This document shows, piece by piece, positions 42,717 to 60,968 of a stretch of 64,000 bases of DNA. Within the stretch, counting starts at the first letter, position 1, and each line of letters opens with the position of its first letter. Below the pieces are notes generated by a model, which worked only from the letters and a program-made list of their open reading frames with translations, searched no databases and was not told the origin of the DNA. Source of the DNA: Candidatus Dadabacteria bacterium. Its GTDB lineage: Bacteria > Desulfobacterota_D > UBA1144 > Nemesobacterales > Nemesobacteraceae. The position numbers and the translations under genes are program-made. Location of the stretch: the NCBI GenBank assembly GCA_009840385.1, contig VXNX01000009.1, positions 101,585-165,584 of the forward strand, in the 5' to 3' direction.

Positions 42717-43460
42717 ATGAATATCGATCTTAATAACATAAACCATTTGCCGGAGGCTGAGCAGCATAAGCTTGAATCAATTAGAGACTTGTGCCATCAA
42801 GAAGAATACTCCCAAGAATTAGTCAGACATAGTCGGGTACAGCCATTAGTTCGGGAACTAAATGATTTTTGCATGTCTAATCGAGTTATTGGAATTCACT
42901 ATACTCGTGCAAACAAGACAAGCATAGTTAAGTACGGGTTATTGTGCCGTTCTGGTGATGAGATCAGGGAAACTTTTCTTGAAGAACACGGGAAGCTCTT
43001 TACAGATGAGGAGATATCCAAACTAAAAAGCACTTGGGATAGCACCTATTGTAAAGAAGAGGCTAGTAACCGAGATTTCATGATTTTTTTTAATTTTATT
43101 ATTACCGAAAATCCTTTACATAATGCGGCTACAGAGGATCTCCTGAACCACTATGGAGGTGAACAAATTCCAATATGCTTTTGTCAACCTCCTTTGTTCA
43201 TACAGGGCGGCACCAATAAAAAATGCTCAATCTGCAAGAAACTAAACCAAATAGGTGAACCATTATTAGTTAGATGCTCATTAGACCCCAAAACAGTTAA
43301 TACTTTTACCGAGAATCCATGGGGGAAGATTTTAGTTTCCTCATTTCATGTTGAAGTTAATCCCGAAGCTTGTCGCATAGACCAAGATGGTTATATTAAG
43401 AAGCCAGTTTCCCCTCAGAACATTCTTGAAGTTAAATTACTAACAGATAGTTTCAACTAA
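42717..43460 (+). CDS. hypothetical protein with paired-Cys (possible zinc-ribbon) motifs
   Basis: ICFCQPP...KKCSICKK Cys pairs and no recognisable family. In operon with queC and TIR-like genes (19-nt gap). Confidence 0.3.
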   Translation: MNIDLNNINHLPEAEQHKLESIRDLCHQEEYSQELVRHSRVQPLVRELNDFCMSNRVIGIHYTRANKTSIVKYGLLCRSGDEIRETFLEEHGKLFTDEEISKLKSTWDSTYCKEEASNRDFMIFFNFIITENPLHNAATEDLLNHYGGEQIPICFCQPPLFIQGGTNKKCSICKKLNQIGEPLLVRCSLDPKTVNTFTENPWGKILVSSFHVEVNPEACRIDQDGYIKKPVSPQNILEVKLLTDSFN

Positions 43461-43497
43461 CTTTGGTATATCGCTCTTAACGGATAGCAGTATTTTT

Positions 43498-43902
43498 ATG
43501 GTTACCTTACAGGAGCAAAGCCTAGATTGGGCTCTTGCGCATGTGGAAACATTCGGAGACACGGATGTTTTTCCAATACCCTTTGAGTACGAAGCAATTC
43601 GTCATGATTGGGAGGCATTAAAATTTCAACTTGCCGGACAGGACCTCTTAAAATGGACAGTGCGGCCACTTCGAATCTTGCCGGCACCGAAAGCTCGATA
43701 CGGGTTTCGAATAATAACCCAACTTGACCCTTTAGATTTCCTATTGTTTGCTGCAACTATACGAGAACTCTGTACCTCGATAGAGTCCAAGCGTATCTCT
43801 CCATCCGTAGTGTGTTCGTACAGAGTGGCACCAACGGAGAATGGCCAACTTTTTGACCAAAACTACTGGCAAATTCTCATTTGGGAAGATGATCAAATAT
43901 AG
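43498..43902 (+). CDS. hypothetical protein resembling the N-terminal (motif 0-2) region of a reverse transcriptase, possibly truncated
   Basis: RPLRILPAPKARYGFRIITQLDPLDFLLFAATI resembles the RT IPKxxGxxRPI...D(R)..Q segment. Only 134 aa. Ends about 15 nt from the 3' end of the convergent PHP-ATPase gene. Confidence 0.25.
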   Translation: MVTLQEQSLDWALAHVETFGDTDVFPIPFEYEAIRHDWEALKFQLAGQDLLKWTVRPLRILPAPKARYGFRIITQLDPLDFLLFAATIRELCTSIESKRISPSVVCSYRVAPTENGQLFDQNYWQILIWEDDQI

Positions 43903-43916
43903 AGGGCATAATTTTT

Positions 43917-46900
43917 TTAGGATATTTGATATTTTAAACGCCTTTTAAGAAATGCTGGCTGTGAACCTTCCAAAATATCTACTATTTTTTGATTGATACT
44001 AGGGTTTTCAATCGCGCCTGTTTCATAACTGAATTTGTAATTTTCCGCCTTTTCTAATTTGACGCATATAATCTGTTCAGCATCAGCTCCGACGGCCAGA
44101 TTAGGATTGTGGGTTACTAAAACAACTTGCCTGCTCCTCTTAGCTTTTCTTATACACTGTGACAGAACTCTAAAAATACTCTCATTATCCAAATTATCCT
44201 CAGGCTGATCAATTATGAGAGGAATGGTTTCCTTATCAAGTTGGAGATAAAAAACGAGTAATAACAATCCCTTTTCTCCTGGTGATAGTTCATTAAGATT
44301 TTTGCCGCCTAATTGGAGCTCATATTTTGCCGTCACGTATTCCAACGAAAACATAAAATCGTAAAACTTTTTGCTATCCATAACCTGATCACGTATTAGA
44401 ACAGGTTCCTCGTTATATAACGACATTTCCTGAATCACTCTATCAAAAAATGCGTAAACTGATTCAAAATCGTTCCAATCAACTCCAGCAACTAAGTCCC
44501 TTAAAAGGTTCTGAGGTTCGTTTGTCCCATGGAAGTAACCACGTTTCTTTTTGTTAATAAGTTTCAAGAAATCATCAGCAAACGAGTTATCAGTTACAAA
44601 AGACGCTTTAATTTCAACTGCAAATTCGTCAGTCTTAACAGAGTCAAGTTTGGATTCAACGCTATGTTTAAGCTCGGAATAAAAATTCAGAATTTGTTTT
44701 TTACTTTCAAAAATGTCTTTAACAATCTTTTTTCGTCTCTCACGTGCTTGGGAAATTTCTTCACTTAATTCACGATCAATATATGTAATTTTTCCTCTCA
44801 AATATCTTGTGGTTCCTGATTTTGGATCATCCGCACCACCAAGTATTTCGTCCTTTTGGGCATTCCACACAGCTAATTTCTCTAAATAGCTTTGATATTT
44901 TCTTTGAGGAGTTCCTAATTTGTCCTTTAATTCATTTATTTCCTCGACTAGGTGTGTGATCCCGGATTTTAAATCAGGTAGAGTCTCAAAAAACTCTGGT
45001 TGGGCATCTTTCACAAAATCCAGATTGCTGTCACTTTCAAGTTTCTGGATTTTAGCTTCTACCATAATAATCTGATCCTCAATAGGTTTTGTATTAATCT
45101 TACTTGTAATTATTTTTTCAATATCAAGACCCAGTTCATCACAGATAATCTTTAGTTCAGATCTTTGCCTTTGGATGTGCGTTTCTAATGATGATACATT
45201 CTGCAAAAGTGCTTTTAGTTTTTGCAACAGGTCCTTCTTCTGGGTTAATTCATCAATAAATTTTCTTTCCTCAGATGCTAATTTCTTTCTGCGCAATTCA
45301 AGTTGCTCTATCCGTTCAGTCAACTCTTTTTGCTCTTCAGATTCTTCATCGGGTTTGCTTATCTCAGCAGGCTTGGCTTCCTCCAGCGAACTCAATTCAT
45401 CTTCTCTAGCTCTCAGCTCCCCCTCTAGCCTCTTCCTAAATAGAGGATCAGATTGTTCTTCTAAATCAACTATTCCAATGTTGAGTTCACGAAGTTTAGT
45501 TTTCAGCAGACTGGTTTCCTGCTTGCTTTGCTGAGTTTTAAACTCCTGCAAATCCTTAAATGTTGCCTTCCCCATACGATCAGTTTCTTCAACATGTGAA
45601 AAAACAACATTCTCTATTTCCCTGCGAAACTGTTGAATCTCTATTTCGTTTGTTAGTTGCTCAAAGTAGTTTTGTGGCAGGTAGCGAACGGCTTCAGGCT
45701 GGCTTTCATCAATATCCTCGTCCAGTTGCTTAGAAATAGTTGAACCGCTCTGCCACTTTAACTTCGCCGTAAAATTCTCTGAATATCCGCGTTGCCGAAA
45801 TTTTTTATTATCTTTCTTGTTTATAAGGAAAGAAAAATTGTTTTCCTGTCTGCTATTGCTCAAAAGGCCGATAATATCAACCAAAGCGCTCTTTCCATTC
45901 CCCTTGTTACCAATGATAACAACTAGTTCCGGGTTTAACTGGATATTCACTTTTTTAAACCAATAGCCATTAACTCCGTCGTATCCCTCTTTCTGGTCAA
46001 TTTCTAGCTCCTTCAGAAACTTTGTGGCTTGGTTAGATTTCCTTATCTCAACCTCTGGTTCAGAACCAATATGAACTCTCGCTTCAGGTTCAAAGCAAAT
46101 TTGTTCTAGGCCTCGAAACGTCAGATCCGCTTTAATCCATGTCGGCTCATATCCAGAGACATCTCCTCCTAAACGCTCCAAGTCGTCAAAAGAGTGAGCA
46201 TCGCTTGCAGAGACAACTGGTTTAGGCCGTGATTTACCGTCTTTATAGCGATCAGGTTGTAGAAACCAACCCCTGCTTTTAGAATCACCGAAAAATAAAT
46301 GACTTCCCTTGTCTATCTTGTCAGAAATCAAAACTTTTCGAGGTGCTCTGCTATCAGTACTCCTTATACCATCGTTTTTAGCTGGAAACGCAATAAGGTA
46401 AGGCCTTGTTTCTCCAAAAGTCTCTTCCAAAGCCTCTCTGAGTTCTTCGAAAGAGACGGTCGCTGCCTTATATTGTGATTGGGTTCTAAGTTCAGCACAC
46501 GAAATTCTTGCTCCAGTCTCCTTGTTAGCTGAAGTTTTAAGCGTTAACAAGAAACGATTTATCGAATCTTTCGAGCAAACCTCTGTGTCATTGTCAAAGA
46601 TCACATGAATGTTCGGGTTGCTATTTTCCGGGCTAATTGCTTCAACCAATCTAAACTCAATATTCGGGAAGAAAACTTTATCAGTTTCAGGATATTTCTT
46701 TTTATATTTTTCCAACAAAGAGAAATAGCCATCGGCACTAAAATAATCCGTAATGCCAAATGCTTGAACTAGGGATTTCTCTAAACAATCAATGTATTCA
46801 TCCCACACATTCTCTTCGTTCCCATAAGAGTCAGCTAACTTTGTTCCCGGCGTATGTATATGCAAATCCCAGCGTCGCCACTGAGAACCTTTTTTTGAAT

Positions 46901-46925
46901 TCAAGCTGCTCTTTTTCTTTGTCAT
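43917..46925 (-). CDS. PHP-domain phosphoesterase fused to a Rad50/SbcC-like SMC-type ABC ATPase
   Basis: N-terminal WDLHIHTPGT PHP metal-binding motif. Walker A IIGNKGNGKSALVDIIGL near aa 340. About 200 aa coiled-coil rich in E/K/L/Q. LSPGEKGLLLLVF signature. Walker B/D-loop PLIIDQPEDNLD and H-loop VVLVTHNP. 1002 aa. Confidence 0.65.
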   Translation of the reverse strand: MTKKKSSLNSKKGSQWRRWDLHIHTPGTKLADSYGNEENVWDEYIDCLEKSLVQAFGITDYFSADGYFSLLEKYKKKYPETDKVFFPNIEFRLVEAISPENSNPNIHVIFDNDTEVCSKDSINRFLLTLKTSANKETGARISCAELRTQSQYKAATVSFEELREALEETFGETRPYLIAFPAKNDGIRSTDSRAPRKVLISDKIDKGSHLFFGDSKSRGWFLQPDRYKDGKSRPKPVVSASDAHSFDDLERLGGDVSGYEPTWIKADLTFRGLEQICFEPEARVHIGSEPEVEIRKSNQATKFLKELEIDQKEGYDGVNGYWFKKVNIQLNPELVVIIGNKGNGKSALVDIIGLLSNSRQENNFSFLINKKDNKKFRQRGYSENFTAKLKWQSGSTISKQLDEDIDESQPEAVRYLPQNYFEQLTNEIEIQQFRREIENVVFSHVEETDRMGKATFKDLQEFKTQQSKQETSLLKTKLRELNIGIVDLEEQSDPLFRKRLEGELRAREDELSSLEEAKPAEISKPDEESEEQKELTERIEQLELRRKKLASEERKFIDELTQKKDLLQKLKALLQNVSSLETHIQRQRSELKIICDELGLDIEKIITSKINTKPIEDQIIMVEAKIQKLESDSNLDFVKDAQPEFFETLPDLKSGITHLVEEINELKDKLGTPQRKYQSYLEKLAVWNAQKDEILGGADDPKSGTTRYLRGKITYIDRELSEEISQARERRKKIVKDIFESKKQILNFYSELKHSVESKLDSVKTDEFAVEIKASFVTDNSFADDFLKLINKKKRGYFHGTNEPQNLLRDLVAGVDWNDFESVYAFFDRVIQEMSLYNEEPVLIRDQVMDSKKFYDFMFSLEYVTAKYELQLGGKNLNELSPGEKGLLLLVFYLQLDKETIPLIIDQPEDNLDNESIFRVLSQCIRKAKRSRQVVLVTHNPNLAVGADAEQIICVKLEKAENYKFSYETGAIENPSINQKIVDILEGSQPAFLKRRLKYQIS

Positions 46926-47096
46926 CTGTTGTTCTTACTCATTGCGACAGAAAACCAGCATTATATGGGGGTATATAGACCTAGCTCTTCGTTCTTTTCC
47001 ACTCGCTTCGATTGATTTTCAACACTTACCCACATGCGGCAACTCAGATTCAAAACTACGTACTAAAGTTTAACGATGGGCTTTGCAGAAAAGATT

Positions 47097-48410
47097 TTAA
47101 TCATCTCTCCAGCCTTTTACCTCAAAAGTAAACTCCCCGGTGTCAATATCCTTACCAAGAGAATTCCAGAAATCGCGGTAAAACAATCCAATGAGTTCCG
47201 AAATCTCTTCAGGATTGCCCAACGAATATCTGGGAAATTCTATCAAACTTGGCTGCAATATTGTTGGATACATAGTGTCTATATGCCTGTTATTAGATGT
47301 TATGTATGCAGAGTTTCCTATTGCTCGAATCTCTGCATCGAGAACATATTCGGCAGTAGGAACAAGTGCTTGGTTCCTGACTCGGTCAGCCCAAGCCACT
47401 AGATTAGCAAAGACAACAACTGGAAAACTCCGTGGAAGGTCAAGTTTGCCTCCCGAACCAGCAGCTCTAAGACATGAAACAAAACCTATCTCTATCAAGC
47501 CGTCACAGTGAAGTTCTCTATAGCTATTGTATAAGCGATTCGTGTTTCCAGGACCCCAATCAGATTCCTCTCTCGCCGCGCGCAACATAGGTCGACATTG
47601 AACACTTGCGGAAGAAATTCCCATATCACTCAGAACATAAGGTTCTTGGTTGTCTTGCTTAATATATATCTTTCGCCATGGTTCATTGAACTCACTTACG
47701 ATTGCACTTCGGTGAAAAACCCGGTCAATACGGATTTCATCTCCTATTGGCATGGCGGTAAATCGGATTCCATACGCATCCGTAGGAGTTTCAAGACATT
47801 CAAATTCCTCTTGAAAACGGTTGCGGCGCACTGAAAGCCGTTCATCTAAACGCTCAAGCCCCCGCGCCATGTTGAGTGTCATGTCCTGAATTTCCCGCAT
47901 AGTCATTTTTTCACATCGGTCAAACCGCCGCACGGGACAGACAAGGATTTTTGTAACCCGATGGGGTGCCAGCCGCGAGCGTCCGACACGTATTATAACA
48001 ACACCGCTCTTACCTTGAGTAGGCACAGCGAATATCTCAAGCCTTGGAAGTTGTGGTTCCACGCGGTCACGAAACACAAGTTTGAGACGTTCTGCTAATT
48101 CTTCGCATCGCGGAACCGGCGATATATCATCCGTGACGGCCGGTTTCTTATCAAGATCACATTCTTTGATTCCTAGAAATAAAGCTCCTCCATGCGCATT
48201 TGCAAAGGCGGTAACCTCTTCAAGTATTACATTCTTCGCCCGATCCCCGATTTCATTTCCACCGGACATCCATGGATCGAGAGCACCTTCCTTGGCTGGC
48301 AGGCTCTCCTTAAATTCTATATGTTCGCCTTCTGGAACCCTCGAATCAACAAACGATTTAATGTGAGAACTGTCGATTTGCTCTGAGGGCATGGAAAGCA
48401 ACTCAGTCAT
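47097..48410 (-). CDS. Schlafen/AlbA_2-domain protein (putative nucleic-acid binding, defense-associated)
   Basis: N-terminal EGEHIEFKESL...ILEEVTAFANAHGGALFLGI matches the AlbA_2 (Schlafen-like) domain. C-terminal about 280 aa uncharacterised. Confidence 0.5.
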   Translation of the reverse strand: MTELLSMPSEQIDSSHIKSFVDSRVPEGEHIEFKESLPAKEGALDPWMSGGNEIGDRAKNVILEEVTAFANAHGGALFLGIKECDLDKKPAVTDDISPVPRCEELAERLKLVFRDRVEPQLPRLEIFAVPTQGKSGVVIIRVGRSRLAPHRVTKILVCPVRRFDRCEKMTMREIQDMTLNMARGLERLDERLSVRRNRFQEEFECLETPTDAYGIRFTAMPIGDEIRIDRVFHRSAIVSEFNEPWRKIYIKQDNQEPYVLSDMGISSASVQCRPMLRAAREESDWGPGNTNRLYNSYRELHCDGLIEIGFVSCLRAAGSGGKLDLPRSFPVVVFANLVAWADRVRNQALVPTAEYVLDAEIRAIGNSAYITSNNRHIDTMYPTILQPSLIEFPRYSLGNPEEISELIGLFYRDFWNSLGKDIDTGEFTFEVKGWRDD

Positions 48411-51652: not shown

Positions 51653-54600
51653 TTAAGGCACCAGTTTAATTTCTTCCGCCAGTTCCAGATAGCGACAGAA
51701 AGCATTGGCGAGTTGTATCTGTCGAGGCGTCCGGCACTCCGCCTCGAAGACCTGTGGAGAACTGACCATAATTGACAGGCACTTGGCACGCGAGGTGGCA
51801 ACGTTAAGTCGGTTCAGACTGTACAAAAACTCCATCCCCCGCGGTGCATCTTTATGGCTTGATGTTGCTGTTGAATAAATTGCAATTGGTGCTTCTTGGC
51901 CTTGGAATTTATCTACCGTGCCCACCCTAGCTCCCGCTAGGAGTCGCTGAATCTCAAAGACTTGCGCGTTGTAGGGCGTAATGATCAAGATATTGTCAAG
52001 GGTGACAGGTCTTTTGCTACCATCACGGTCCACCCAAGTTGCGTCACTATTCAACAATCTTTTTACAAGTGCTTCTATCGCCAGTGCTTCTTCAGGTGAG
52101 CAATTCTGATTGCCCTCGTGTTCGACGGGCAGATAGTACAAACCTGCGCCGTTGATTGGTCCAGATGCATGGACCACCTGCTGCTTTAGGTCTTTCTTCG
52201 CTTTGAGCTTGCCCTCATAGAAAAGTTCTGATGTATAATTGCAGATGTCGGGGTGCAACCGCCAAGTTTCTTCAAGAAATAGACCCTGTTCAGGTCTTAT
52301 TGTTTGCTTACCAGCTAAAACATGGTCAAGTGCGGAAACGTTAGTGCCATCTGGATGACTACCTTGCATTGGTTGGTCAAGTTGCTGCGGGTCACCGATC
52401 AGCACAACGGTATTGGCAGCCTGCGAGACCGCCAGCACATTGGCTAACGACATTTGTGCCGCTTCGTCGACAAACAGCACATCGATTATCTCAGAAGCCT
52501 CCGGTCGTGCCCACAGCCAAGCTGTACCGCCACCAACATTGACACTACTTCCAAGCATGTCGAACAGCTCTTCATTTTTCCTGGTAAAGCAGAGGCGAGG
52601 TTGCTCATCTTCGATCTCCGCAGCCTTATGACAGCAACGTAAATCCACTCCGCTTTCTTCTGCCGCCGCGATGGCTGCGTCAATCAGATTGCGGATTACC
52701 TTATGGCTATTCGCGGTGATACCGACCGTCTTGCCTTGGTGCACAAGTTCACAAATCATTTGCGCACCGGTAAATGTTTTGCCTGTGCCTGGTGGTCCCT
52801 GAATTGCTAGAATCCCCCCTTCTAGATGACCGCATAGCCGCACGGCTGCGTCAACAGTCGCTTCGCCTTCACGGTGCAACTTTTGTCCACCGATGCGAGG
52901 GGTTTCTTTCAGTAAGAGATCTCGTGCAGCCCGATATTTGCCTTCACCACGCAAGCCGTCACTGACGACATGTTCCGCAAGGCGCACTAGCGAGTCAGCG
53001 AGCACCTGTGTAGAGACATGGTCGTGTGCGAACACAGCGTGAGGGTGGGTCGCCTTGCTATCTTGCCGTTTCTTGATATCAATGGTGTAGTCTTCAAAAG
53101 AAATCGCAGCAACCTTCGCCACTATTTTGTTATCTTCACAATTGCAAAGATTCTCACCGCCGCGGAATTCGTTTTCCTGCGGCGGGAATTTATAGCGATG
53201 AATTGGTGCTCTTTCCGTACCTCCCACCTCATTGACAAAGGTGAGACCTGACAACCCGGTACGTTCATCCATCAGTTCCTCTGCCGAAAGGTCGCACAGC
53301 CGGAAATATTCCCACCATACGGCTTTGTCTTCCCGGCGGTGCCAGTCAATTATGTTGGCCAATACCCATAGTCCCTGTTGTTCTTTATCCCGTTTTTCTG
53401 GATCAGTCGGAATGCCAGCAGTCAGTTGTTCAATCAGCGGATTAATTTTCATAAGCCAGTCAGTGATTCTTTCTGTTGGCGAACCGTCACCCGGTTCTGG
53501 ACGCGGTATATCCGCCCCATCTGCTAGTAACTGACCGCGTTGCGTTTCAAGCCAGTCTCGCAGCCCTGCCACGGAGGCACAGTCATCCTTGTTGTAGACT
53601 AACACCGTGGCTTTGGTCTCCTCCGTAATTGAAGGAATATCATCCAGTTCCAGATTGGCTTGAAGATTTGCAAGTGCTGCATTTGCATCCGGGAGTTGCG
53701 TATTGCGCTTGAAGCCGTAGAACGGTTCCAGGTCTTTGATTGAATAGCTTTCAACGCTGGCACGAATACTGTGGCGCACGACCTGATATAGATCAATAAA
53801 TACGCCGGCGCGCAACAACTGGTCGATTTCTTCTTCTCTCGAGGCATATCTCCCCATCAGCCGTTTTAAGGCTGAGGTCTCGTAAGGTGCATAATGGTAA
53901 ATGTGAAGGTCGGGATATTGCTCCCAACGTTCCATAACGAAATCGACGAAATTCTCGAAGGTCTGCCGTTCTTCAGCGCGTGAGAAAGCCCAGATGTTTT
54001 TGTAAACAGTGTCAGCACTCTCATCATTGAATACATAACCGAACAGATATTCAAGTCCATGTTCTCCAACAAAAGGATCGCCTTCGAGATCGAAGAAAAT
54101 ATCGCCAGGCGAAGGTTCAGGAAGGCAAGAGAGGCCAAAGCCATGCTTAACAGGCAGCAATTCAAATTTACATTTGCCACTTTCTCTCGCCTCGACCTGA
54201 ATGCGGGCCTGTTCGCGTACTCGGTCATAGAAGTTTGCCGAGCCGCGTTCTGGTTCCCATGGCGGTGGCAACGGCAATAGAGCCAAGTCCTGTACCGTCG
54301 TGATGTTGTGCTGTGATAGTTCCTTAATCTGGAGTTTGGATATTCCAGCCACGAGACAAAGGTGATCATCGTCGCGGCGGTGCTTGTCACAGTTTTCCCG
54401 CCAGCGGCAGATATCACAATACTCTTTGGGGTCGGGATAGGTCTTTTCGGCTTCCTGACTTATTAGGAATTCCCGAAGTGCCCGCTGTACCTTGCGAAAA
54501 TACGCGGCATAGTCGGCAAAACGATATTTCCGCGGTTCGAAATCAGACCAAGGGACAACTACGTACATATAATCGGGCGTGACACCTTGTGCCTTCGTTA

Positions 54601-55063
54601 GCAAGTCGGAATAAAGGCATAGTTGCAGAATAGTTCCCGCTCTAGTTTCGCGTGCAAGCTTGGTATCAATTGCCTCATATGACCAATCGCCGATGATACC
54701 CGGCTTTTCGACACGACGAAGAATGTCGGCACGACCACCCCAACCATCACATGAAAGTGCACCTTGCACGATCACAGCGACACCTTGTCTCATCGCCAAA
54801 AGCGTTTCTTCCACCGCTTCTTCGGTAACATACGAACCGTCAATGCGCACGATTCCTAGGCCAGATTGCTCCAGATGGGCGACATAATTTTGTTCATGAA
54901 TGGAACCACGCTTCAACAGGACCTGGAGTAGTGGGTCCCAGACAGTTGGTTTGGCGAGTACCCCTTCGGCCACAGCACGGTCGAGGGTGGATAGATAACG
55001 ACAATTCAAATAACCTACGAGGTCGCTGGCGGTTAGGTCAAATTTGCTGCCAGTTTTTTTCAT
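51653..55063 (-). CDS. RecB-family (TM0106-like) nuclease fused to a superfamily-1 DNA helicase (AAA_11/AAA_12, Dna2/Upf1-like)
   Basis: N-terminal half has a Cys cluster CDICRWRENC...C and IFFDLEGDP, as in TM0106-type RecB-like nucleases. C-terminal half has Walker [20 protein letters not shown] and IGDPQQLDQP SF1 motifs. 1136 aa. Confidence 0.65.
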   Translation of the reverse strand: MKKTGSKFDLTASDLVGYLNCRYLSTLDRAVAEGVLAKPTVWDPLLQVLLKRGSIHEQNYVAHLEQSGLGIVRIDGSYVTEEAVEETLLAMRQGVAVIVQGALSCDGWGGRADILRRVEKPGIIGDWSYEAIDTKLARETRAGTILQLCLYSDLLTKAQGVTPDYMYVVVPWSDFEPRKYRFADYAAYFRKVQRALREFLISQEAEKTYPDPKEYCDICRWRENCDKHRRDDDHLCLVAGISKLQIKELSQHNITTVQDLALLPLPPPWEPERGSANFYDRVREQARIQVEARESGKCKFELLPVKHGFGLSCLPEPSPGDIFFDLEGDPFVGEHGLEYLFGYVFNDESADTVYKNIWAFSRAEERQTFENFVDFVMERWEQYPDLHIYHYAPYETSALKRLMGRYASREEEIDQLLRAGVFIDLYQVVRHSIRASVESYSIKDLEPFYGFKRNTQLPDANAALANLQANLELDDIPSITEETKATVLVYNKDDCASVAGLRDWLETQRGQLLADGADIPRPEPGDGSPTERITDWLMKINPLIEQLTAGIPTDPEKRDKEQQGLWVLANIIDWHRREDKAVWWEYFRLCDLSAEELMDERTGLSGLTFVNEVGGTERAPIHRYKFPPQENEFRGGENLCNCEDNKIVAKVAAISFEDYTIDIKKRQDSKATHPHAVFAHDHVSTQVLADSLVRLAEHVVSDGLRGEGKYRAARDLLLKETPRIGGQKLHREGEATVDAAVRLCGHLEGGILAIQGPPGTGKTFTGAQMICELVHQGKTVGITANSHKVIRNLIDAAIAAAEESGVDLRCCHKAAEIEDEQPRLCFTRKNEELFDMLGSSVNVGGGTAWLWARPEASEIIDVLFVDEAAQMSLANVLAVSQAANTVVLIGDPQQLDQPMQGSHPDGTNVSALDHVLAGKQTIRPEQGLFLEETWRLHPDICNYTSELFYEGKLKAKKDLKQQVVHASGPINGAGLYYLPVEHEGNQNCSPEEALAIEALVKRLLNSDATWVDRDGSKRPVTLDNILIITPYNAQVFEIQRLLAGARVGTVDKFQGQEAPIAIYSTATSSHKDAPRGMEFLYSLNRLNVATSRAKCLSIMVSSPQVFEAECRTPRQIQLANAFCRYLELAEEIKLVP

Positions 55064-55117
55064 AGCTGAAGCACACTGTCTCTATACAATAGCTAAAGAT
55101 ATAACTAGGACGCCACA

Positions 55118-55951
55118 CTAGGTATCTACTAAGATTGTAGCATTGAACCACTCACCCTTCCCGTTATCTGAGGGGATGTGAGGAGCAATGTCGGCAACAC
55201 TGCGAGTATGCAGCTTAGGCGGATCTTTCGCCATATCCCAAAGATGAAATAGATATGCTGTATCCGCCTTTTCAGCCTGCTTCCATTCATTGCGGGTTAC
55301 CCAAAACCTGAGGGGAGAATTAATCGTAGATTTGACTTCAATCATACGACTATCAATGGTACCGTGGTCAGACTTTTCATACGAGAGGACATCATAACCC
55401 GCGAAATTGTCATCGAGTCCTGGCCATTCAACTTCTCTCTCAATCCCCTCACTTTTTAGCCTTATCCGCTCATATTCAATTGTGAGTAACTCAGCAACTC
55501 TAGCTTGCTTCATTTTTTCAAGGTCTGAAATTAGCTTCGCGTGTCCTGTAATGTCGTCCCACCAAGTCACAACATCAGCGGATGGAGGGTCTGCCATCAA
55601 ACCAGCGGCTACAAAAACATCCTGATCATTTGTATCAAGTCCACGCACAAAGCGTTTACGTCCAACTCGCATAGTTTTGGACCAGATTGGTTGGTGCTTG
55701 ATAAGAATCGCTTTAATGCATTCTTGATAAAAGGCTTTTCCATCTGTAGGGCATTCGTCATCAACAAGTGTGTTAAGATAAGAGGATGCCTCTAAATCAA
55801 AGCTGGCACCATCCACCTCAAGACTTTCGATTAGAGGTATGATATCCAAAGTCTTAAGTTCGGGCTGGCGAGCAGAATACTTCCTGATTAACCGTAGTCC
55901 TTCTAATGCAGAAAGAGAAAACATTCGCTCGATCGGAATGAGCGCTGTCAT
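55118..55951 (-). CDS. DUF3883-like (restriction-endonuclease-fold) domain protein
   Basis: C-terminal GYDVLSYEKSDHGTIDSRMIEVKST resembles the DUF3883 / PD-(D/E)xK-like GYD..S...IEVK motif. Start overlaps the SNF2 gene stop by 4 nt. Confidence 0.4.
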   Translation of the reverse strand: MTALIPIERMFSLSALEGLRLIRKYSARQPELKTLDIIPLIESLEVDGASFDLEASSYLNTLVDDECPTDGKAFYQECIKAILIKHQPIWSKTMRVGRKRFVRGLDTNDQDVFVAAGLMADPPSADVVTWWDDITGHAKLISDLEKMKQARVAELLTIEYERIRLKSEGIEREVEWPGLDDNFAGYDVLSYEKSDHGTIDSRMIEVKSTINSPLRFWVTRNEWKQAEKADTAYLFHLWDMAKDPPKLHTRSVADIAPHIPSDNGKGEWFNATILVDT

Positions 55952-57858
55952 GCTTCCTCCATTGGAACATCTCCTGCTCTGTTTTCCATTTCGGCAATTA
56001 AGTCTATGATGTCTTGGAGTTCAACGTCATAATCTATAGGATCATCGGCACTTTCTTCATCCAACGCAATTTCGTGTAGATCTGGATCATCCAAGAGTTG
56101 TTGCATATTGCGGATCTTTTCCACCAACCTACGGCTAACCGAATAATCAATGCTTCCAACTCTTGGAGGTGCTATTGATCTATATACAAAGATATTAGTT
56201 TCCTGATTCGGGGGAAGTCCTAGTCGATGAATCCTGTCAATTGATTGAAGATAGTGTGTGGAAACATAGCTTCGGTCAGCGTATAAAGCATTATGGCAGA
56301 CGGTGTGTAGACTTATTCCTTCACCGGCGGCTGCTGGATTGGCCACAAGAACGTAACAATTATCATCTTCGTGAAATCGCTTGATTCGCCCTTCTCTGGT
56401 TTCGATTTCGTTTGTTGAACCAGATGGAACGCCTCCATGGATAAAAACCGGGTTCAAATCGGCAAGAGAGGAAACGAAATTGTAAATTGTATTGGTAAAT
56501 ATAGTCCAAATGACACATTTTTCACCCGCATTTGCTAATACACGCGCGTCATCCATCACAGCCTTCATCTTGTTTGAATAACCTTCATCCATAACTTGTT
56601 CTATTACTGCAGAATTAATTGATATATAGTCATTTGCCATAGCGGTCAGCGCAAGCACTGGGTTCACCGAGAGTTGTAGTAACCGCATAACGGAGCGTCG
56701 AGCTTTTAGAAACTCCCCCTTAGCCATTCTTCGGCTCAAATTATTGTAGTAGCTTCGAACAAACTCATTGCGAACAATGGAATAGAGTGCAAGTTGTCCT
56801 TCACTCATCGAAACATCGACAAATTTGCGGTTTGCTTTTGGTAGACCCAGCTCTTTTTTTGTCGTTCTGACGTAGAGGTTGCCTAAAACAGTTTTTGGAG
56901 ACTTACCGTGTACGACCTCTAAACCGAGACCGTGTCCAGGCCATAAAAAATCAAGTTGCGACTCTATGTCCGAGGCACTCTGAGGCATAGGCGTACCTGT
57001 CAAAATATCCCGCCTTACTGGCAAAGCTGAAATACTCAAAAGGAATGCTCCTCTTTGGGATTCCCAACCGGCCTTCATTCGATGTGACTCATCCAGAACC
57101 AGATGGGTAGGGGTGGAAGCAATGTGACAAGTTATTATATCTTGCTGTCTAATCAAAAGATCATATGAAATAATAAATCGTGTCGCACCCGATAATAATT
57201 TTTGGCGGTTATCTAGCTCGGACCCATCTAGAAGTGTGAATTGTTCACTTCCATTGTCTGAAGCATCCTCAGTCATACACTCGGAGACAATATCGAGCCA
57301 TACTTGAGTTGCAGACTTTGGTGCAACAACTATCAAATGTTGCCCTGTATGACGCGCCAATAGGTGAAGCGCAAAGGTTACTGTGGTCTTTCCTGCACCA
57401 GGAACTGAAAAGTTTGCACCATTTGCGAGTGAAAGCAGGTGTTGGAGATCACGAAGTTGAAAAGGCTTAAGTCTACGCTTTGTAAAACCTGCTTGAACAA
57501 GTAGGTTTTCAATTTCTTGCTCAGTGATGGTTGAAGACAGACTTTTCCTTTGCTCTTGTGTTGCCTTCACCTGGTTGGCAAACCTCTTCAACTCTTCGGC
57601 AGCCTTACCCTCAGGCCGAAATCGGAAATTTAACGAACGTTGTGTTGCTCGGCTTCCGAATTCGCGAACTAGACTGAGTGTATTAGGCCAAGAAAGTTTA
57701 ATCCGGTTACCAGTATCGATACAATCCACCCCCTTGGAGCGGATTGAGAGTTTAATACGAGACCAGACAGGTGTTTGGGTATCTTCTTCGGAAATAGCAA
57801 GCGTTCCTGTGTAATCATCATTTAGGAGTATCCGGATAGCCGTTGATATATCATTCAT
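55948..57858 (-). CDS. SNF2-family (SF2) helicase/ATPase
   Basis: Walker A PGAGKTTVT, DEAH-like VLDESHRMK, ILTGTPMPQS (SNF2 motif III), and motif VI QSIDRIHRLGL. 636 aa. Confidence 0.7.
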   Translation of the reverse strand: MNDISTAIRILLNDDYTGTLAISEEDTQTPVWSRIKLSIRSKGVDCIDTGNRIKLSWPNTLSLVREFGSRATQRSLNFRFRPEGKAAEELKRFANQVKATQEQRKSLSSTITEQEIENLLVQAGFTKRRLKPFQLRDLQHLLSLANGANFSVPGAGKTTVTFALHLLARHTGQHLIVVAPKSATQVWLDIVSECMTEDASDNGSEQFTLLDGSELDNRQKLLSGATRFIISYDLLIRQQDIITCHIASTPTHLVLDESHRMKAGWESQRGAFLLSISALPVRRDILTGTPMPQSASDIESQLDFLWPGHGLGLEVVHGKSPKTVLGNLYVRTTKKELGLPKANRKFVDVSMSEGQLALYSIVRNEFVRSYYNNLSRRMAKGEFLKARRSVMRLLQLSVNPVLALTAMANDYISINSAVIEQVMDEGYSNKMKAVMDDARVLANAGEKCVIWTIFTNTIYNFVSSLADLNPVFIHGGVPSGSTNEIETREGRIKRFHEDDNCYVLVANPAAAGEGISLHTVCHNALYADRSYVSTHYLQSIDRIHRLGLPPNQETNIFVYRSIAPPRVGSIDYSVSRRLVEKIRNMQQLLDDPDLHEIALDEESADDPIDYDVELQDIIDLIAEMENRAGDVPMEEA

Positions 57859-57907
57859 ATTATTCCCTTACCCTTTTTAATCTTGGCCAATTCCTCGTTT
57901 CTATCGT

Positions 57908-59209
57908 TTACTGCCGTTTTTTTATACTTTCCTCCACTCTCTCTAAAATAGTTCTGATTGACTCAATCTGCTTCAACATTGCCCTTAATGTGTCATCACC
58001 GGCAAGAGTAATATCAATCCCGGCCAGTTTTGTGTGTGCCTGAGACAGTGCTTTCAGAGCTGCTTTCTCTGATTGCTGGTCTTTGTCAAGTTCAATGGCA
58101 GTTTCACAGGATTCTATTAAGGCAGATACAGCTTCTTCCTTTGTAGATTCGTTACGAAGTGCTTCTATTATTGAACTGTAGTTCAAATTGTCTTCTTCAT
58201 TTTCAATATCAATCGCAAAATCATCTTCAACATCCTCGTCTAAATCTGCGGAATTATTGTCAATGGCTAGCTGCGCTTGCAACAATTCAAGCACTTTCGG
58301 CGCCAACTTGCCAAAGGAAGGATTCAAGTTGTAGACACGCCCTGATACTCGATCTCTGTTTTCAAAAAGTGAGAAAGCAATAGCGCGGCTTGCATTTTGA
58401 AGGCTTGGGTCCTTTTTAGCAATACTTTTTGGAATATCTCCGAAAATCTGCTGCCCTTCCGCCGCAACAAGATCATACTGACCGGGTTTCTTGACCCATT
58501 CATTTAGATATAGATCCGCCTCTTCCAGCGCCTGCAGGACCTTTTCGACATCTGCCTTGCTACGCCTCAGGCGATCAGCAACTTCCTTTGTTGTCCGTCC
58601 TTTGTTGACTTGTCTCCGGACCAATCTCGCATCGCCAATCCAGTCATAATCGAGTTTAGTTTCCTGCTTAGCTTGAAGATCGGCTTCAATATCATCTACT
58701 TCATCTCTTGTAGTATCCGGGGGAAGAACCGCACATCGAACATGACTGAAGCGTTCGTTAACTGAACCATCATTATTACGATAGAGTTCACGCATTGCAC
58801 TCAGACGACGATTCCCGTTAACCACTATGCCAGTATAGGTAATCAAAATTGTATCCCGTTGTTCTTCTTGCCTTAGTACATCGATAATCGGCACAACGGA
58901 GGATGTACCTTGTTTTGCAAGTTTCAGAAGAATTTGGTGCTGTCTCTGTTGAGCCGTTGAAGATTCTTGACCTTTCTCAAAGAAGTTTTTGGGTAGATCC
59001 CCAGTAGCAATTTCGCTTTGCTGTGCACTGAAGGTTCGACAGTTCTCCATCCGATAAACCAGCACATCGATTGGTAATGAGATCACCTTCAAAGAGAAGG
59101 GGCCACCCCGAAAGTCGTATATTTTCTCCTGCTCATTCGAGTTCTCCCAGCGTTGTTTAATAAGGACTTCTCGTTCTGACCTAGGTCGTACTCTCACTTG
59201 ATAGCTCAA
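57908..59209 (-). CDS. ParB/sulfiredoxin N-terminal-domain protein (DpdB/DndB-like) with acidic coiled C-terminus
   Basis: ISLPIDVLVYRMENCR and IVVNGNRRLSAMREL match ParB N-terminal box motifs. 433 aa. Confidence 0.5.
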   Translation of the reverse strand: MSYQVRVRPRSEREVLIKQRWENSNEQEKIYDFRGGPFSLKVISLPIDVLVYRMENCRTFSAQQSEIATGDLPKNFFEKGQESSTAQQRQHQILLKLAKQGTSSVVPIIDVLRQEEQRDTILITYTGIVVNGNRRLSAMRELYRNNDGSVNERFSHVRCAVLPPDTTRDEVDDIEADLQAKQETKLDYDWIGDARLVRRQVNKGRTTKEVADRLRRSKADVEKVLQALEEADLYLNEWVKKPGQYDLVAAEGQQIFGDIPKSIAKKDPSLQNASRAIAFSLFENRDRVSGRVYNLNPSFGKLAPKVLELLQAQLAIDNNSADLDEDVEDDFAIDIENEEDNLNYSSIIEALRNESTKEEAVSALIESCETAIELDKDQQSEKAALKALSQAHTKLAGIDITLAGDDTLRAMLKQIESIRTILERVEESIKKRQ

Positions 59210-59221
59210 TAGGTTCCTCCT

Positions 59222-59686
59222 TTACTCAAAAGCAATAATAAAAATAGGAACAGTTATGACACGATCAAACAGTTCTAATTCGCGAATAACTCTCTCAGCG
59301 TTAGCAATGTTATCGCCGATTTCACGCGCGGCTTCTTTAGTAGGAAGAGCTAAAGCAGCTGCCTGTATGCGCCCGTTTTGGAAAAGAAACTGTAATTTTA
59401 ATAAGTCATATGGTGCACGGCTCATGTTTCCTGTCTGAAGCTGAAAAGCAAGACCTTCTTTCTCAGCCGTAACCTCGAGACCATAATCCTGATTAAGTTT
59501 CACTCCCAATGCCCAACCTTCATTGAGAAACTCGGTTTCAACGTGTTCACGAATATGCGGTGTGCACCCTCTGGTAATATTGATTGTAGAAGCTTCAAAT
59601 ATACCAGTCAGCCACTTTCTAAGCCCACGCTGTTCCCACTCCACACTCGCATTATAATGTTTGCCATAGGTAAATGCTAGTTTCAT
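59222..59686 (-). CDS. hypothetical small protein (154 aa) between methyltransferase and ParB-like genes; candidate nuclease/specificity component
   Basis: No confident family assignment. Overlaps the MTase stop by 4 nt and lies 13 nt from the ParB-like gene, so it is operonic. Confidence 0.3.
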   Translation of the reverse strand: MKLAFTYGKHYNASVEWEQRGLRKWLTGIFEASTINITRGCTPHIREHVETEFLNEGWALGVKLNQDYGLEVTAEKEGLAFQLQTGNMSRAPYDLLKLQFLFQNGRIQAAALALPTKEAAREIGDNIANAERVIRELELFDRVITVPIFIIAFE

Positions 59687-60618
59687 GAGTTTCTTTTTGA
59701 ATTTGGATCGTAAACTGGCTCATTCATTGGTCGGGTACGGAGCTTCCCTTTACGTAGATCACGCACGCGACGGCGTGCAATATTGATATAGTTTTTGTCA
59801 AGGTCACAGCCGTATGCACAGCGACCATGCTTCAGTGCTGCAATCGCACTCGATCCAACTCCAAGATAAGGATCAAGGACATTTTGACCCTCATTGGTCA
59901 AGGCCAAAACCAACCGCTCAACCAAGCCAACGGGAAACTGACAAGGGTGTTCAGTTTTTTCTACATGGTTGGACTTCACATTAGGAATGTCCCAAACATC
60001 GGATGGGTTTTTTCCTAAAGGATTACTCGATACACTGCCTTTTTTTGGACCTTTAAAATATTTTTTGTTGGGATACTTGGATGGAACACGAATATCGTCA
60101 AGATTGAATATGTAATCATCAGATTTTGTGAACCAAAGTATAGTCTCATGACGCCCAGAGAATCTCTTCTGGCAGTGTAGACCGTGCCCGAAGGTCCATA
60201 CAATCCTGTTTCTTAGCTTCAAGCCGTGATTTCGGAAAATTGGATAGAGAAGAATGTCGAGGGGGAATATCTCACCACCATCGACATAGTTGCCAACTTG
60301 CCAACAGATTGATCCGTTGGGAGCTAGAACACGTGTGGCTTCCGCAATACAAGCGGCCTGTTCCTTGATGTAAACATCCTGAGATTTTCGAACCTCGTAC
60401 TCTTTCCCGATATTGTAAGGGGGAGAGGTTACAATAAGGGTCATTGATTCGTCATCCAAACGACGCATAAATTTGAGATTATCTTCGCATGAAATTTGGA
60501 CTTTTATATCTCGCTTTAGTCGCCGAGTTTTAGGGTCCTTCGTATCATTAGATGCCGCTCGTCTGGATCGTACTGATTCCAATTCCTTCTCCCGACACGT
60601 ACTACTAAATCTTCCCAA
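59683..60618 (-). CDS. DNA methyltransferase, beta-class amino-MTase (SPPY motif; N4-cytosine or N6-adenine)
   Basis: Motif IV TSPPYN near the N-terminus (preceded by CEDNLKFMRRLDDESMTLIV) and motif I LDPYLGVGSSAIAA near the C-terminus, the circularly permuted beta-class order. The listed start is a TTG, so the true start is uncertain. Confidence 0.75.
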   Translation of the reverse strand: MGRFSSTCREKELESVRSRRAASNDTKDPKTRRLKRDIKVQISCEDNLKFMRRLDDESMTLIVTSPPYNIGKEYEVRKSQDVYIKEQAACIAEATRVLAPNGSICWQVGNYVDGGEIFPLDILLYPIFRNHGLKLRNRIVWTFGHGLHCQKRFSGRHETILWFTKSDDYIFNLDDIRVPSKYPNKKYFKGPKKGSVSSNPLGKNPSDVWDIPNVKSNHVEKTEHPCQFPVGLVERLVLALTNEGQNVLDPYLGVGSSAIAALKHGRCAYGCDLDKNYINIARRRVRDLRKGKLRTRPMNEPVYDPNSKRNS

Positions 60619-60628
60619 GATTAATAAG

Positions 60629-60656
60629 ATTCTACCAGCTTTACACAGCGTATGAA
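60629..60656 (-). promoter_or_regulatory. candidate sigma-70-type promoter for the island-2 operon (minus strand: TTCATA, 16-nt spacer, TAGAAT)
   Basis: Reverse complement of 60651-60656 is TTCATA and of 60629-60634 is TAGAAT, with a 16-nt spacer. This sits immediately 5' of the MTase ORF, which would imply a very short or leaderless 5' UTR if the TTG start is real. Confidence 0.2.
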
Positions 60657-60968
60657 ATTAAAGCTGAGTTCTAAGAAAGAACACGTGTTACCACAAATAC
60701 TCTGCTTAGATATCCTCGCATATACGCTGATAACGTCTTAAATCTTTCGCAAATTAAAAAGGAAGGTGGCATTTCTTCATATATCCGGTGAGAGTCTAAA
60801 ACTCCGGCAACCTCCAAATAGTTTTCTACCTGAATAAATTGTCCGGCATCCCAAGGAAGCTCGTTGAGATCATTTTTCATCAGATTCTTGTTTTCTTTTA
60901 CGACGATAACTTTTATACACTGCTCTGATGAAAAAAGCCCTAGCTTTTACAGCAGCAACTTACTGAAA

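Follow-up and report, generated by a model that had tools for sequence, protein, structure and literature searches.

Extent and distribution of the cassette

Six predicted genes lie in close succession on one strand of the window (the whole 64,000-nucleotide stretch of DNA that was analysed), which raises the question of how many of them belong together and whether they form a defence system. A preliminary description had read all six as a single methylation-based, multi-helicase unit. All six open reading frames were confirmed, with their coordinates, on the minus strand (Table 1). The spacings, in the order methyltransferase (MTase), 154-residue protein, ParB-like protein, SNF2 ATPase, DUF3883/NOV_C protein and nuclease-helicase, are −4, 12, 49, −4 and 54 nt, so both earlier overlaps of 4 nt were correct and the three earlier gaps (13, 50 and 55 nt) were each off by one.

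Table 1. Coordinates of the predicted genes and of a putative promoter in the window
Feature	Start	End	Strand	Evidence
RecB-like nuclease + SF1 helicase, 1136 aa	51653	55063	−	TIGR03491, 1.5e-78; AAA_11/AAA_12
DUF3883/NOV_C PD-(D/E)XK nuclease (predicted), 277 aa	55118	55951	−	PF13020, 1.5e-15
SNF2-family ATPase, 636 aa, predicted dsDNA translocase	55948	57858	−	PF00176, 7.5e-12, and Helicase_C
ParB/Srx-like protein, 433 aa	57908	59209	−	PF18763 ddrB-ParB below cut-off; tblastn to plasmid genes
BamHI/BglII/BstYI-fold protein, 154 aa, without canonical catalytic carboxylates	59222	59686	−	Pfam BglII, 3.3e-5; precomputed BamHI and BglII matches
Beta-class N4/N6 DNA methyltransferase, SPPY motif IV, 311 aa	59683	60618	−	PF01555, 5e-51; PADLOC MTase_II, 1.4e-80
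Promoter-like site (putative), TTCATA-16-TAGAAT with extended TG	60629	60656	−	Consensus scan match only; just upstream of the MTase gene, within the shared block

In a blastn comparison, positions 55117–60728 (minus strand) formed a single block that is 90.6% identical over 5,613 bp to positions 8486–14094 of another locus (L084), and the shared DNA stops at the stop codon of the DUF3883 gene. The L084 copy, which has a 92%-identical ParB-like protein, is located in an unrelated genomic context, with TraT upstream and a photolyase downstream, and lacks the nuclease-helicase. The latter is also missing from all 80 related genome loci, of which 68, from more than 10 bacterial phyla, contain the other five genes in colinear order (8 of the remaining 12 are cut by contig ends). 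Colinearity on this scale greatly exceeds what chance would produce. Because the five genes are colinear elsewhere, the sixth is missing there, and the shared DNA does not extend past the DUF3883 gene, we treat five genes as the unit and exclude the sixth, and a conserved six-gene system was rejected. Gene order, on whose conservation in other genomes the preliminary description had staked its proposal, is thus kept, for five genes. The domain assignment of the RecB-nuclease/SF1-helicase fusion was upheld, but the fusion is an unrelated neighbour, which leaves SNF2 as the only motor of the system, so neither the six-gene extent nor the term 'multi-helicase' applies. The GC content of the fusion gene is ∼50%, compared with 41–44.5% for the cassette and 53–56% for the flank on the sucC side.

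The cassette is rare: among 185,579 species genomes scanned, 166 relatives were found. ParB relatives with only 27–28% identity led to the same cassette, and three proteins of the 154-residue family that were sampled independently each lay in it. The cassette and a variant of it (described below) were found on plasmids and chromids and beside integrases, relaxases, ArdC and TraG. Cultured carriers are Paracoccus denitrificans DSM 413, Rhodobacter capsulatus SP18, Brevibacillus borstelensis AK1, Bacillus halotolerans, Paenibacillus lautus NBRC 15380 and Bacillus infantis. Most flanks consist of housekeeping genes and are not classic defence islands, and the 125 nearest neighbours were heterogeneous in Pfam and PADLOC scans. 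All-against-all clustering of the flanking open reading frames gave no cluster present in more than 9 loci, and a seventh, accessory conserved gene was rejected on this ground. Searches for terminal repeats, att sites and centromere-like repeats around the cassette returned short, chance-level matches only. Window positions 55117–60728 are probably a horizontally mobile, self-contained, restriction-modification (R-M)-like candidate defence cassette of five predicted genes, with a function that we propose below from their sequences.

A BamHI-fold protein coupled to a methyltransferase

The 154-residue protein, previously listed as a small unknown, belongs to the BamHI/BglII/BstYI family by several approaches. 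It matches the Pfam BglII family (Table 1), its closest matches in a profile search of the PDB were BstYI (1.8e-4), BamHI (0.029) and OkrAI (0.11), and in a Foldseek search with its AF2 model (pLDDT 95.7) all 16 PDB matches with E ≤ 0.001 were BstYI, BamHI, OkrAI or BglII (TMq 0.67–0.82). The NCBI label of the protein is 'BglII/BstYI family type II restriction endonuclease'.

The catalytic carboxylates of the solved enzymes are D94, E111 and E113 in BamHI and D84 and E93 in BglII, where Q95 takes the third position. In the alignment of the 154-residue family, the column corresponding to BamHI E111 and BstYI E128 contains Q, H, C, A or T and never D or E (Q in 69 and H in 7 of 76; C in 47, Q in 22 and A in 2 of 71). 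Candidate Asp positions at residues 65 and 71–73 are unconserved. Acidic residues reach 90% conservation in three columns only, D94, E131 and E136, all located in predicted helices, and by the alignment combined with predicted secondary structure none of the catalytic β-strands contains a conserved acidic position. Since no such residue is left in these strands, the protein is probably non-cutting, and together with the modelled fold this suggests that it is a sequence-specific, methylation-sensitive reader of a DNA site. The invariant residues D94, K97, R132 and E136 could form an unconventional site or, alternatively, a partner or dimer interface. Members of the family are 151–160 residues long, which is 40–70 residues below the solved BamHI/BglII/BstYI-type enzymes.

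The assignment of the neighbouring gene as an SPPY-containing beta-class MTase of the N6_N4 family was confirmed (Table 1). The SPPY motif (residues 65–68) lies N-terminal of the motif I sequence DPYLGVGSS, and because of SPPY the modification is possibly m4C. The nearest solved relative is M.RsrI (5e-37). Position 60618 marks the longest open reading frame; translation probably begins at the TTG at 60582, which is preceded by GGAGAAGGA and gives 299 residues, the length of the MTase gene call in locus L001. The BamHI fold of the small gene changes the picture of the cassette to a Type II pair with a degenerated endonuclease, coupled to a ParB-SNF2-nuclease triad.

The ParB-like protein, SNF2 ATPase and NOV_C nuclease

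The assignments of the SNF2 and DUF3883 proteins were reproduced (Table 1). The motifs of the SNF2 ATPase are intact and conserved in 77 orthologues (Walker A GAGK157TT, D256-E257-S-H, and motif VI QSIDRIHRLG), and its top PADLOC match is ZorD (2.8e-16). The predicted NOV_C nuclease retains the motif GYD187 ... E205-V-K207 in 77 orthologues and matches the PADLOC models PDC-S36 (8.6e-12) and PD-T4-1 (1.7e-7). The two proteins are encoded by separate open reading frames in all loci, and in the window the first 4 nt of the NOV_C gene coincide with the end of the SNF2 gene; the same overlap is found in 54 of 78 loci.

For the 433-residue protein, the label 'ParB-like' is tentative and applies only below curated thresholds. 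Its N-terminal domain contains an invariant GxxxxGNRRLxAMR motif (core NGNRRLxAMR) and an E175..LQ179 motif, and tblastn connected it to plasmid genes (1e-12 to 2e-14), two of which are annotated as ParB/RepB/Spo0J by PGAP. The PF18763 ddrB-ParB model matched 20 of 26 and 45 of 79 family members, always below its cut-off (best 1.8e-5). A central HTH-like segment is weakly suggested, and the C-terminus is helical and possibly a coiled coil. The sequence profile gave only weak PDB matches (best E 0.026), led by designed helical proteins that align with the C-terminus. The AF2 model reached a pLDDT of only 51 and was left out of the fold search.

Association of the BamHI-fold protein with the triad

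Divergence of the 154-residue protein across loci follows that of the ParB-like, SNF2 and NOV_C proteins closely (Spearman rho 0.85–0.86). The corresponding values for the MTase are lower (0.45–0.56), which may in part stem from its narrow identity range (65–81% in more than 70 loci). In four loci (L074, L075, L082 and L095), the MTase is replaced or relocated and the other four genes remain. The MTase is thus more loosely attached than the other four genes.

These relationships bear on an alternative in which two independent systems adjoin: a Type IIP pair of an MTase with an active BamHI/BglII-like endonuclease, and a separate ParB-SNF2-NOV_C module similar to Hma. Such an arrangement would agree with the NCBI name of the 154-residue protein and with the overlap of its gene with the MTase gene (4 nt in 34 of 71 loci), which is typical of Type II pairs. 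It would also fit the residue at Q84 of the protein, where BglII and BstYI likewise have Q in the PDB profile alignment, at a position that we take to be part of their active site. Moreover, a related ParB-SNF2-DUF3883 triad exists on plasmids without this MTase/154-residue pair. In this variant a different Type II restriction endonuclease-like gene ('X') occupies the same upstream position; its product matches a PADLOC Type II restriction endonuclease model (2.8e-19) and showed no relationship to the 154-residue protein by hhalign and no match in the PDB. However, every member of the 154-residue family with an examined context sits in the cassette, always next to ParB-like, SNF2 and NOV_C genes and never in a two-gene unit with the MTase. 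The protein also co-diverges with the triad and not with the MTase, keeps its place beside the triad where another MTase has been substituted, and has the short chain and altered catalytic strands described above. Two adjoining systems are therefore unlikely.

Proposed mechanism

The cassette looks like an undescribed ATP-driven R-M system that contains a BamHI-like protein without cutting residues. In the mechanism that we propose, the beta-class MTase (possibly m4C-forming) would mark a short site on host DNA as self, and the degenerate BamHI-fold protein would bind unmethylated copies of that site without cutting them. The bound protein would then license the ParB-like/SNF2/NOV_C triad as an ATP-dependent effector: the SNF2 ATPase would use ATP to translocate on foreign DNA, and the NOV_C nuclease, translationally coupled to it, would nick or cleave away from the site, by analogy with Type I, Type III and ISP enzymes and HmaA. 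The least certain step concerns the ParB/Srx-like protein, which we conjecture to join the reader to the motor as an NTP-gated DNA clamp or adaptor, or else to be a safety switch. ParB-type NTP-gated clamps are otherwise known from chromosome segregation.

More broadly, it is possible, and we put this forward tentatively, that the cassette represents an unrecognised class of ATP-dependent restriction. A dead Type II endonuclease fold would serve as an exchangeable specificity subunit (BamHI-like here, from another restriction endonuclease-like family in the plasmid variant) and license the conserved triad of ParB-like, SNF2 and NOV_C proteins. Within this triad, a clamp of the ParB type would have been co-opted for immunity, loading or controlling a motor-nuclease. 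If the cassette works by the mechanism proposed above, it illustrates a route by which restriction systems may evolve: a Type II pair loses cutting and its endonuclease fold becomes a methylation-sensitive reader for a separate motor-nuclease. ParB-like proteins would also acquire a specific part in immune defence. At 5.6 kb the cassette is small, and the few genomes that carry it nevertheless span a broad range of phyla; with cultured carriers, the proposal is directly testable.

A function that is not primarily anti-phage is improbable as well. The cassette could be a selfish module for post-segregational killing (addiction), or for exclusion or maintenance of plasmids or ICEs, with a ParB-like DNA-binding protein and a remodelling ATPase at its core; its rarity and the location of the cassette and its variant on plasmids and chromids and near mobility genes would suit this, and proteins of the ParB family have a role in conflicts involving plasmids (PMC5512222). 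Such a role is, however, compatible with restriction, as R-M systems are also addictive, and the combination of an MTase, a restriction endonuclease fold, a translocase and a nuclease is a restriction signature; centromere-like repeats were not found around the cassette. Finally, it is very improbable that the nuclease/SF1-helicase fusion is a functional sixth component: it shares the strand and follows after just 54 nt, across a spacer without a terminator-like site, and its domains are common in defence, but its absence from all related loci and from L084, the end of DNA homology before it and its different GC content argue against such a role.

Relation to known systems

The earlier proposal of a new methylation-based defence system is retained as an MTase-linked, R-M-like candidate with five-gene conservation, and not in its six-gene, multi-helicase form. 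No description of the gene set was found in the full-text literature, a scope outside which subscription-only papers and REBASE fall. Neither PADLOC v2 nor NCBIfam release 20 contains models for the signature proteins of the cassette, so pipelines relying on them would report no more than an MTase, a 'Type II restriction enzyme' and, as if unconnected, helicase and DUF genes.

Membership in DISARM, Dpd and Hma was rejected, as signature genes are missing and scores are far below threshold; the preliminary description had likewise matched the locus to neither DISARM nor Dpd. DISARM resembles the cassette in combining an MTase and a SNF2-family ATPase within one operon. None of the six proteins matches DUF1998 (DrmA/DrmB) or PLD (DrmC), in accord with the earlier reading, no DrmE was found, and the NCBIfam DrmD score is 23.6 bits (cut-off 610). 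In Dpd, too, a member of the ParB superfamily, DpdB, occurs alongside SNF2-like helicases. The cassette contains no DpdA/TGT, DpdE scored 15.1 bits against a cut-off of 500, and DpdJ matches the sixth gene weakly. The 433-residue protein has no NCBIfam match and no PADLOC match at E ≤ 0.01, hence none to a DpdB model if the library holds one. Self-marking by the cassette would be base methylation and not deazaguanine. A TGT gene is present elsewhere in the window (39929–40900), 15 kb away in a separate island.

In NTP-dependent, multi-subunit restriction systems that have Type II-like MTases (CglI/NgoAVII, LlaJI, BsuMI) and in Type I, III and ISP enzymes, the motor driven by NTP acts apart from site recognition, and cutting requires translocation. 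The likeness to the cassette is one of concept, and the protein families differ: profile scans of the six proteins detected no HsdS/HsdR, Res/Mod, Z1/PLD or McrB-like proteins, and we know of no ParB-like component in these systems.

With the Type IIP enzymes BamHI, BglII, BstYI and OkrAI, the 154-residue protein has in common the fold, the QTGN/ETGN/QFGK strand-helix signature and, in addition, translational coupling to a beta-class MTase. It differs in its length, its catalytic strands and its constant association with the triad.

Hma pairs a SNF2 motor with a NOV_C PD-(D/E)XK nuclease and a linked methyltransferase, as does the cassette. HmaA is a fusion of the two, and its protection against T4 depends on the helicase domain as well as on nicking by the nuclease domain (PMC11232893); it is accompanied by HmaB (DUF1156 MTase) and HmaC (DUF499 ATPase). 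The PADLOC HmaA match in the cassette (3.3e-7) covers the helicase C-terminal part only, and DUF1156 and DUF499 had no Pfam or PADLOC match there, the MTase being PF01555. In contrast to Hma, motor and nuclease of the cassette are encoded by separate, overlapping genes that are distant from HmaA, and a ParB-like protein and a BamHI-fold protein are present instead of the DUF1156 and DUF499 components.

The cassette comprises five genes and is mobile

All six minus-strand ORFs that the preliminary description had joined into one operon were found where it had placed them, at spacings of -4, 12, 49, -4 and 54 nt (its two 4-nt overlaps agree, its gaps of 13, 50 and 55 nt do not). Profile scans bore out its calls of a beta-class N6_N4 methyltransferase (MTase; PF01555, 5e-51, with SPPY ahead of motif I in the sequence), a SNF2 ATPase (PF00176, 7.5e-12) and a DUF3883/NOV_C protein (PF13020, 1.5e-15). 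The call of a RecB-nuclease/SF1-helicase fusion for gene 6 was also correct; its nuclease is of TM0106 type, and the fusion includes an RNase-H-like domain (TIGR03491, 1.5e-78; AAA_11/AAA_12). With an alignment of the 433-aa protein, 80 loci were retrieved from one-genome-per-species contigs, and the six window proteins were mapped onto them. The proposed operon held for its first five genes, as the MTase, 154-aa, 433-aa, SNF2 and DUF3883 genes recur elsewhere in identical order and orientation (68 of the 80 loci). Gene 6, in contrast, lies outside the cassette; it adjoins the other five in none of the 80 loci, and its sole trace is a partial match of 26% identity on the opposite strand of one locus (L072). 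Among the 12 non-colinear loci, eight are cut by contig ends, in three (L074, L075 and L082) the MTase is of another kind or has moved, and in L072 the SNF2 match is only partial. The overlap of -4 between the MTase and 154-aa genes is present in 34 of 71 loci, and that between the SNF2 and DUF3883 genes in 54 of 78.

Among the hosts of the cassette are Alpha- and Gammaproteobacteria, Azoarcus (Betaproteobacteria), Nitrospirae, Terriglobia/Acidobacteriaceae, Binatia, Bacteroidota (Flavobacteriales, Mucilaginibacter, Chitinophaga), Bacillota, Tepidisphaeraceae, Spartobacteria, Spirochaetes, Latescibacterota and Nitrospinota. Even relatives of the 433-aa protein at only 27-28% identity keep the arrangement (e.g. 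Brevibacillus borstelensis AK1), as do the three members of the 154-aa family picked independently, from Winogradskyella, a Firmicutes MAG and Bacillus halotolerans. No additional flanking gene is conserved in more than nine of the 80 loci, and the nearest neighbours are mixed, comprising housekeeping genes, a few integrases, resolvases and relaxases, and a few defence genes. In the Firmicutes MAG the gene next after NOV_C encodes an AIPR (abortive-infection) protein, and in Winogradskyella Dam-like MethyltransfD12 genes adjoin the cassette.

The contig L084 carries the five genes only, with a 433-aa protein 92% identical to that of the window, in a wholly different setting, flanked by TraT and a photolyase gene. 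The two DNAs have a single block in common, 5,613 bp long and 90.6% identical, which begins ∼110-145 nt upstream of the MTase gene and stops at the DUF3883 stop codon. The GC content of the cassette is 41-44.5%, that of gene 6 is ∼50%, and that of the flank on the sucC side is 53-56%. Conserved synteny, the shared block and the distinct GC content therefore define a mobile unit of five genes and 5.6 kb, and the cassette is a real and strongly conserved feature.

The 154-aa protein belongs to the BamHI/BglII/BstYI family

The 154-aa protein, previously listed as a small unknown, was assigned to the BglII/BstYI/BamHI family by Pfam, PDB profile and Foldseek comparisons. Direct matches to the BglII endonuclease family are weak (Pfam 3.3e-5; PADLOC REase_II 1e-4), and both NCBI and the precomputed Pfam table label it as a BglII/BstYI/BamHI-family endonuclease. 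The top three PDB sequences matched by the family profile are BstYI (1.8e-4), BamHI (0.029) and OkrAI (0.11). In a Foldseek search of the PDB with the AlphaFold model (pLDDT 95.7, from a 71-sequence alignment), all 16 matches with E ≤ 0.001 were BstYI, BamHI, OkrAI or BglII (TMq 0.67-0.82, E 2e-9 to 2e-5), and the next match had an E of 0.15.

In the HMM alignment, F-Q82-L-Q84-TGN of the window protein corresponds to M-E-F-E-TGN of BamHI, L-E-W-E-TGN of OkrAI and I-E-V-Q-FGK of BstYI, and the residues aligned with Q82 and Q84 are numbered E111/E113 in BamHI and E128/Q130 in BstYI in the published structures. Among 76 orthologues, position 82 is Q in 69 and H in 7; it is C in 47, Q in 22 and A in 2 members of a broader 71-member set, and two distant members have C or T there, so it is never acidic in any of these. 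Nor is there a conserved catalytic Asp at the candidate positions under any alignment: position 65 (BamHI-like spacing) is D in only 33 of 71 members and N in the window protein, and positions 71-73 (OkrAI alignment and predicted hairpin) are T/K/S, I/V/L and T/F. Acidic residues reach 90% or more in just three columns, D94, E131 and E136, and each of these is in a predicted helix. N87, R90, N126 and R132, which align with the DNA-contact region of BamHI, are invariant. We infer from these alignments that the protein binds DNA but that its canonical active site has been lost.

ParB-like, SNF2 and DUF3883 proteins

For the 433-aa protein, labelled 'ParB-like' in the preliminary description, no profile of Pfam, PADLOC or NCBIfam scores at E ≤ 0.01, but membership of the ParB/Srx superfamily is probable. 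Its family, which comprises 1,026 clusters at 50% identity, has an invariant G127...G132-N-R-R-L-x-A-M-R140 motif together with an E175...L-Q179 motif; these presumably resemble the Arg-rich and ENLQR-like boxes of CTP-binding ParB proteins. The sole recurring Pfam family is PF18763 (ddrB-like ParB), matched by 20 of 26 and 45 of 79 members, always below the cut-off (best E 1.8e-5), and tblastn retrieved plasmid genes (1e-12 to 2e-14), two of which PGAP calls 'ParB/RepB/Spo0J family partition protein'. A central HTH and a coiled-coil C-terminus are only hinted at, by weak matches to HTH domains at residues 202-233 (E 0.02-0.03) and to designed helical proteins at the C-terminal end. In 77 orthologues the SNF2 ATPase conserves Walker A (GAGK157TT), D256-E257-S-H and motif VI, and the DUF3883 protein GYD187 and E205-V-K207. 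The cassette has this one motor, not the several of the multi-helicase system first proposed.

The MTase is an exchangeable partner

Co-divergence was assessed by Spearman correlation of percentage identities to the window proteins across 70 loci. Identities of the 154-aa protein rise and fall in step with those of the ParB-like, SNF2 and DUF3883 proteins (rho 0.85-0.86; 0.92-0.94 among the latter three), whereas the MTase is more weakly correlated with the other cassette proteins (rho 0.45-0.56). In Paenibacillus lautus and Bacillus infantis the place of the cassette MTase is taken by an unrelated SPPY enzyme of 474-492 aa on the opposite strand, and in L075 and Bacillus halotolerans the MTase is downstream of the cassette and convergent. 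Loci with swapped or relocated MTases come from some Bacillota and one Rhizomicrobium, and their four restriction-side genes stay in order. The allegiance of the BamHI-fold gene is therefore to the triad of ParB-like, SNF2 and DUF3883 genes, and the MTase is its exchangeable partner.

The start of the window MTase is ambiguous, as the TTG of the longest ORF (60618) is only 11 nt past a promoter-like -10; TTG 60582, preceded by the ribosome-binding site GGAGAAGGA, is more plausible. Only part of a 69-aa ORF between sucC and the MTase gene falls within the shared block, and this ORF is probably not a conserved gene.

Plasmid variants of the triad

Four alphaproteobacterial plasmids (Mesorhizobium, Kozakia, Rhizobium pRL11 and Azospirillum) encode a ParB-like protein of ∼438 aa, a SNF2 protein of ∼630 aa and a DUF3883 protein in cassette order. 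Their SNF2 is 32% identical to that of the cassette over its full length (E 9e-78), as is the N-terminal region of their ParB-like protein, NGNRR included (32%, E 6e-20). The four triads lack both an annotated MTase and a BamHI-like gene upstream, and are preceded instead by the gene of a conserved Cys/His-rich protein, X (281-319 aa), which is unrelated to the 154-aa protein by hhalign and matches the PADLOC Type II REase model REase_II PDLC03501 (2.8e-19). Since the triad is kept while the upstream REase-like gene differs, it looks, from these sequences, like a conserved effector core that accepts different REase-like 'input' proteins.

In L098 a vsr gene is immediately upstream of the variant, and in L096 an IS481 element separates SNF2 from DUF3883. 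On a Streptomyces albidoflavus plasmid (L100), the gene of a 475-aa 'ParB N-terminal domain-containing protein' overlaps that of a SNF2-type helicase (608 aa); no DUF3883 gene is annotated, and ∼1.8 kb downstream is without annotation. This pair may be a third triad variant, in Actinomycetota.

Neighbouring genes in the window

The 1136-aa product of gene 6 combines a RecB/Cas4-like TM0106-type nuclease, an RNase_H_2 domain and an Upf1-like SF1 helicase, and PADLOC MkoA/MkoC match its helicase C-terminus only (2.7e-43). Located between the cassette and an rpoH-like sigma gene, it may be a stand-alone defence candidate of one gene. The window also contains a separate low-GC defence island. A string of overlapping genes encodes a TGT-like transglycosylase, an Ogg-type HhH DNA glycosylase, QueC, a ThsB-like TIR protein and a 247-aa protein without a match in Pfam or PADLOC. 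The TGT and QueC genes match the PADLOC models of those names, and it is unusual for a 7-deazaguanine-type modification set to be joined to genes for a DNA glycosylase and a TIR protein.

Coordinates of the cassette, its variants and neighbouring features
Feature	Sequence	Coordinates	Strand
Cassette, block shared with L084	window	60728-55117	-
69-aa ORF	window	60671-60880	-
Gene 6	window	51653-55063	-
Low-GC defence island	window	35421-48410	
GmrSD/HEC-06 (island)	window	35421-37091	
Two TIR proteins (island)	window	37163-39031	
Ppl-like ATPase, 1002 aa (island)	window	43917-46925	
Schlafen AlbA_2 protein (island)	window	47097-48410	
TGT/QueC gene string	window	39929-43460	+
MTase-less triad variant	L096, plasmid NZ_CP088153.1	3051-8690	
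MTase-less triad variant	L097, plasmid NZ_CP014678.1	599-5493	
MTase-less triad variant	L098, plasmid NZ_CP084698.1	4036-9008	
MTase-less triad variant	L099, plasmid NZ_CP022368.1	4048-9002	
ParB-like/SNF2 pair	L100, plasmid NZ_CP108380.1	4953-8203	
Swapped/moved MTase	L074	7847-9322	-
Swapped/moved MTase	L082	6649-8070	-
Swapped/moved MTase	L095	11400-12851	-
Swapped/moved MTase	L075	~14233-15123	-
AIPR gene	L093, Firmicutes MAG	11147-13279	
MethyltransfD12 genes	L092, Winogradskyella	11334-12032, 13554-14258	

Proposed mechanism and comparison with known systems

In the proposed mechanism, the MTase would mark a short site in host DNA; its SPPY hints at N4-cytosine, presumably as for the MTases of BamHI and BglII. 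On incoming DNA, the degenerate BamHI-fold protein (probably dimeric) would bind the unmethylated site and recruit or license the triad, in which SNF2 would translocate at the expense of ATP and the translationally coupled NOV_C nuclease would nick or cut. The pairing of motor and nuclease has a direct precedent in HmaA (PMC11232893). The weakest step is that of the ParB-like protein, which could act as an NTP-gated clamp or adaptor, or as a safety switch. The predicted function of the cassette is that of a new restriction-modification-like defence variant with an unusual division of labour.

The earlier view that the set is neither DISARM nor Dpd was confirmed: the cassette has no DUF1998 or PLD protein of DISARM (DrmD reaches 23.6 bits, far below its cut-off of 610) and no DpdA or DpdB of Dpd (DpdE scores 15 bits against 500). 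It also has no DUF1156 or DUF499 protein of Hma, and its SNF2 and NOV_C are on separate genes. The 433-aa protein has no model in PADLOC v2 (2023) or NCBIfam release 20 (2026), where those for the 154-aa protein and the nuclease are generic or weak. No published description of the five-gene set was found in the open-access full-text literature. Several carriers of the cassette are cultured, which makes the decisive experiments easy. In concept, the closest parallel to the cassette is restriction by NTP-dependent multi-subunit systems (Type I/III/ISP, CglI/NgoAVII, LlaJI and BsuMI), although those are built from other protein families.
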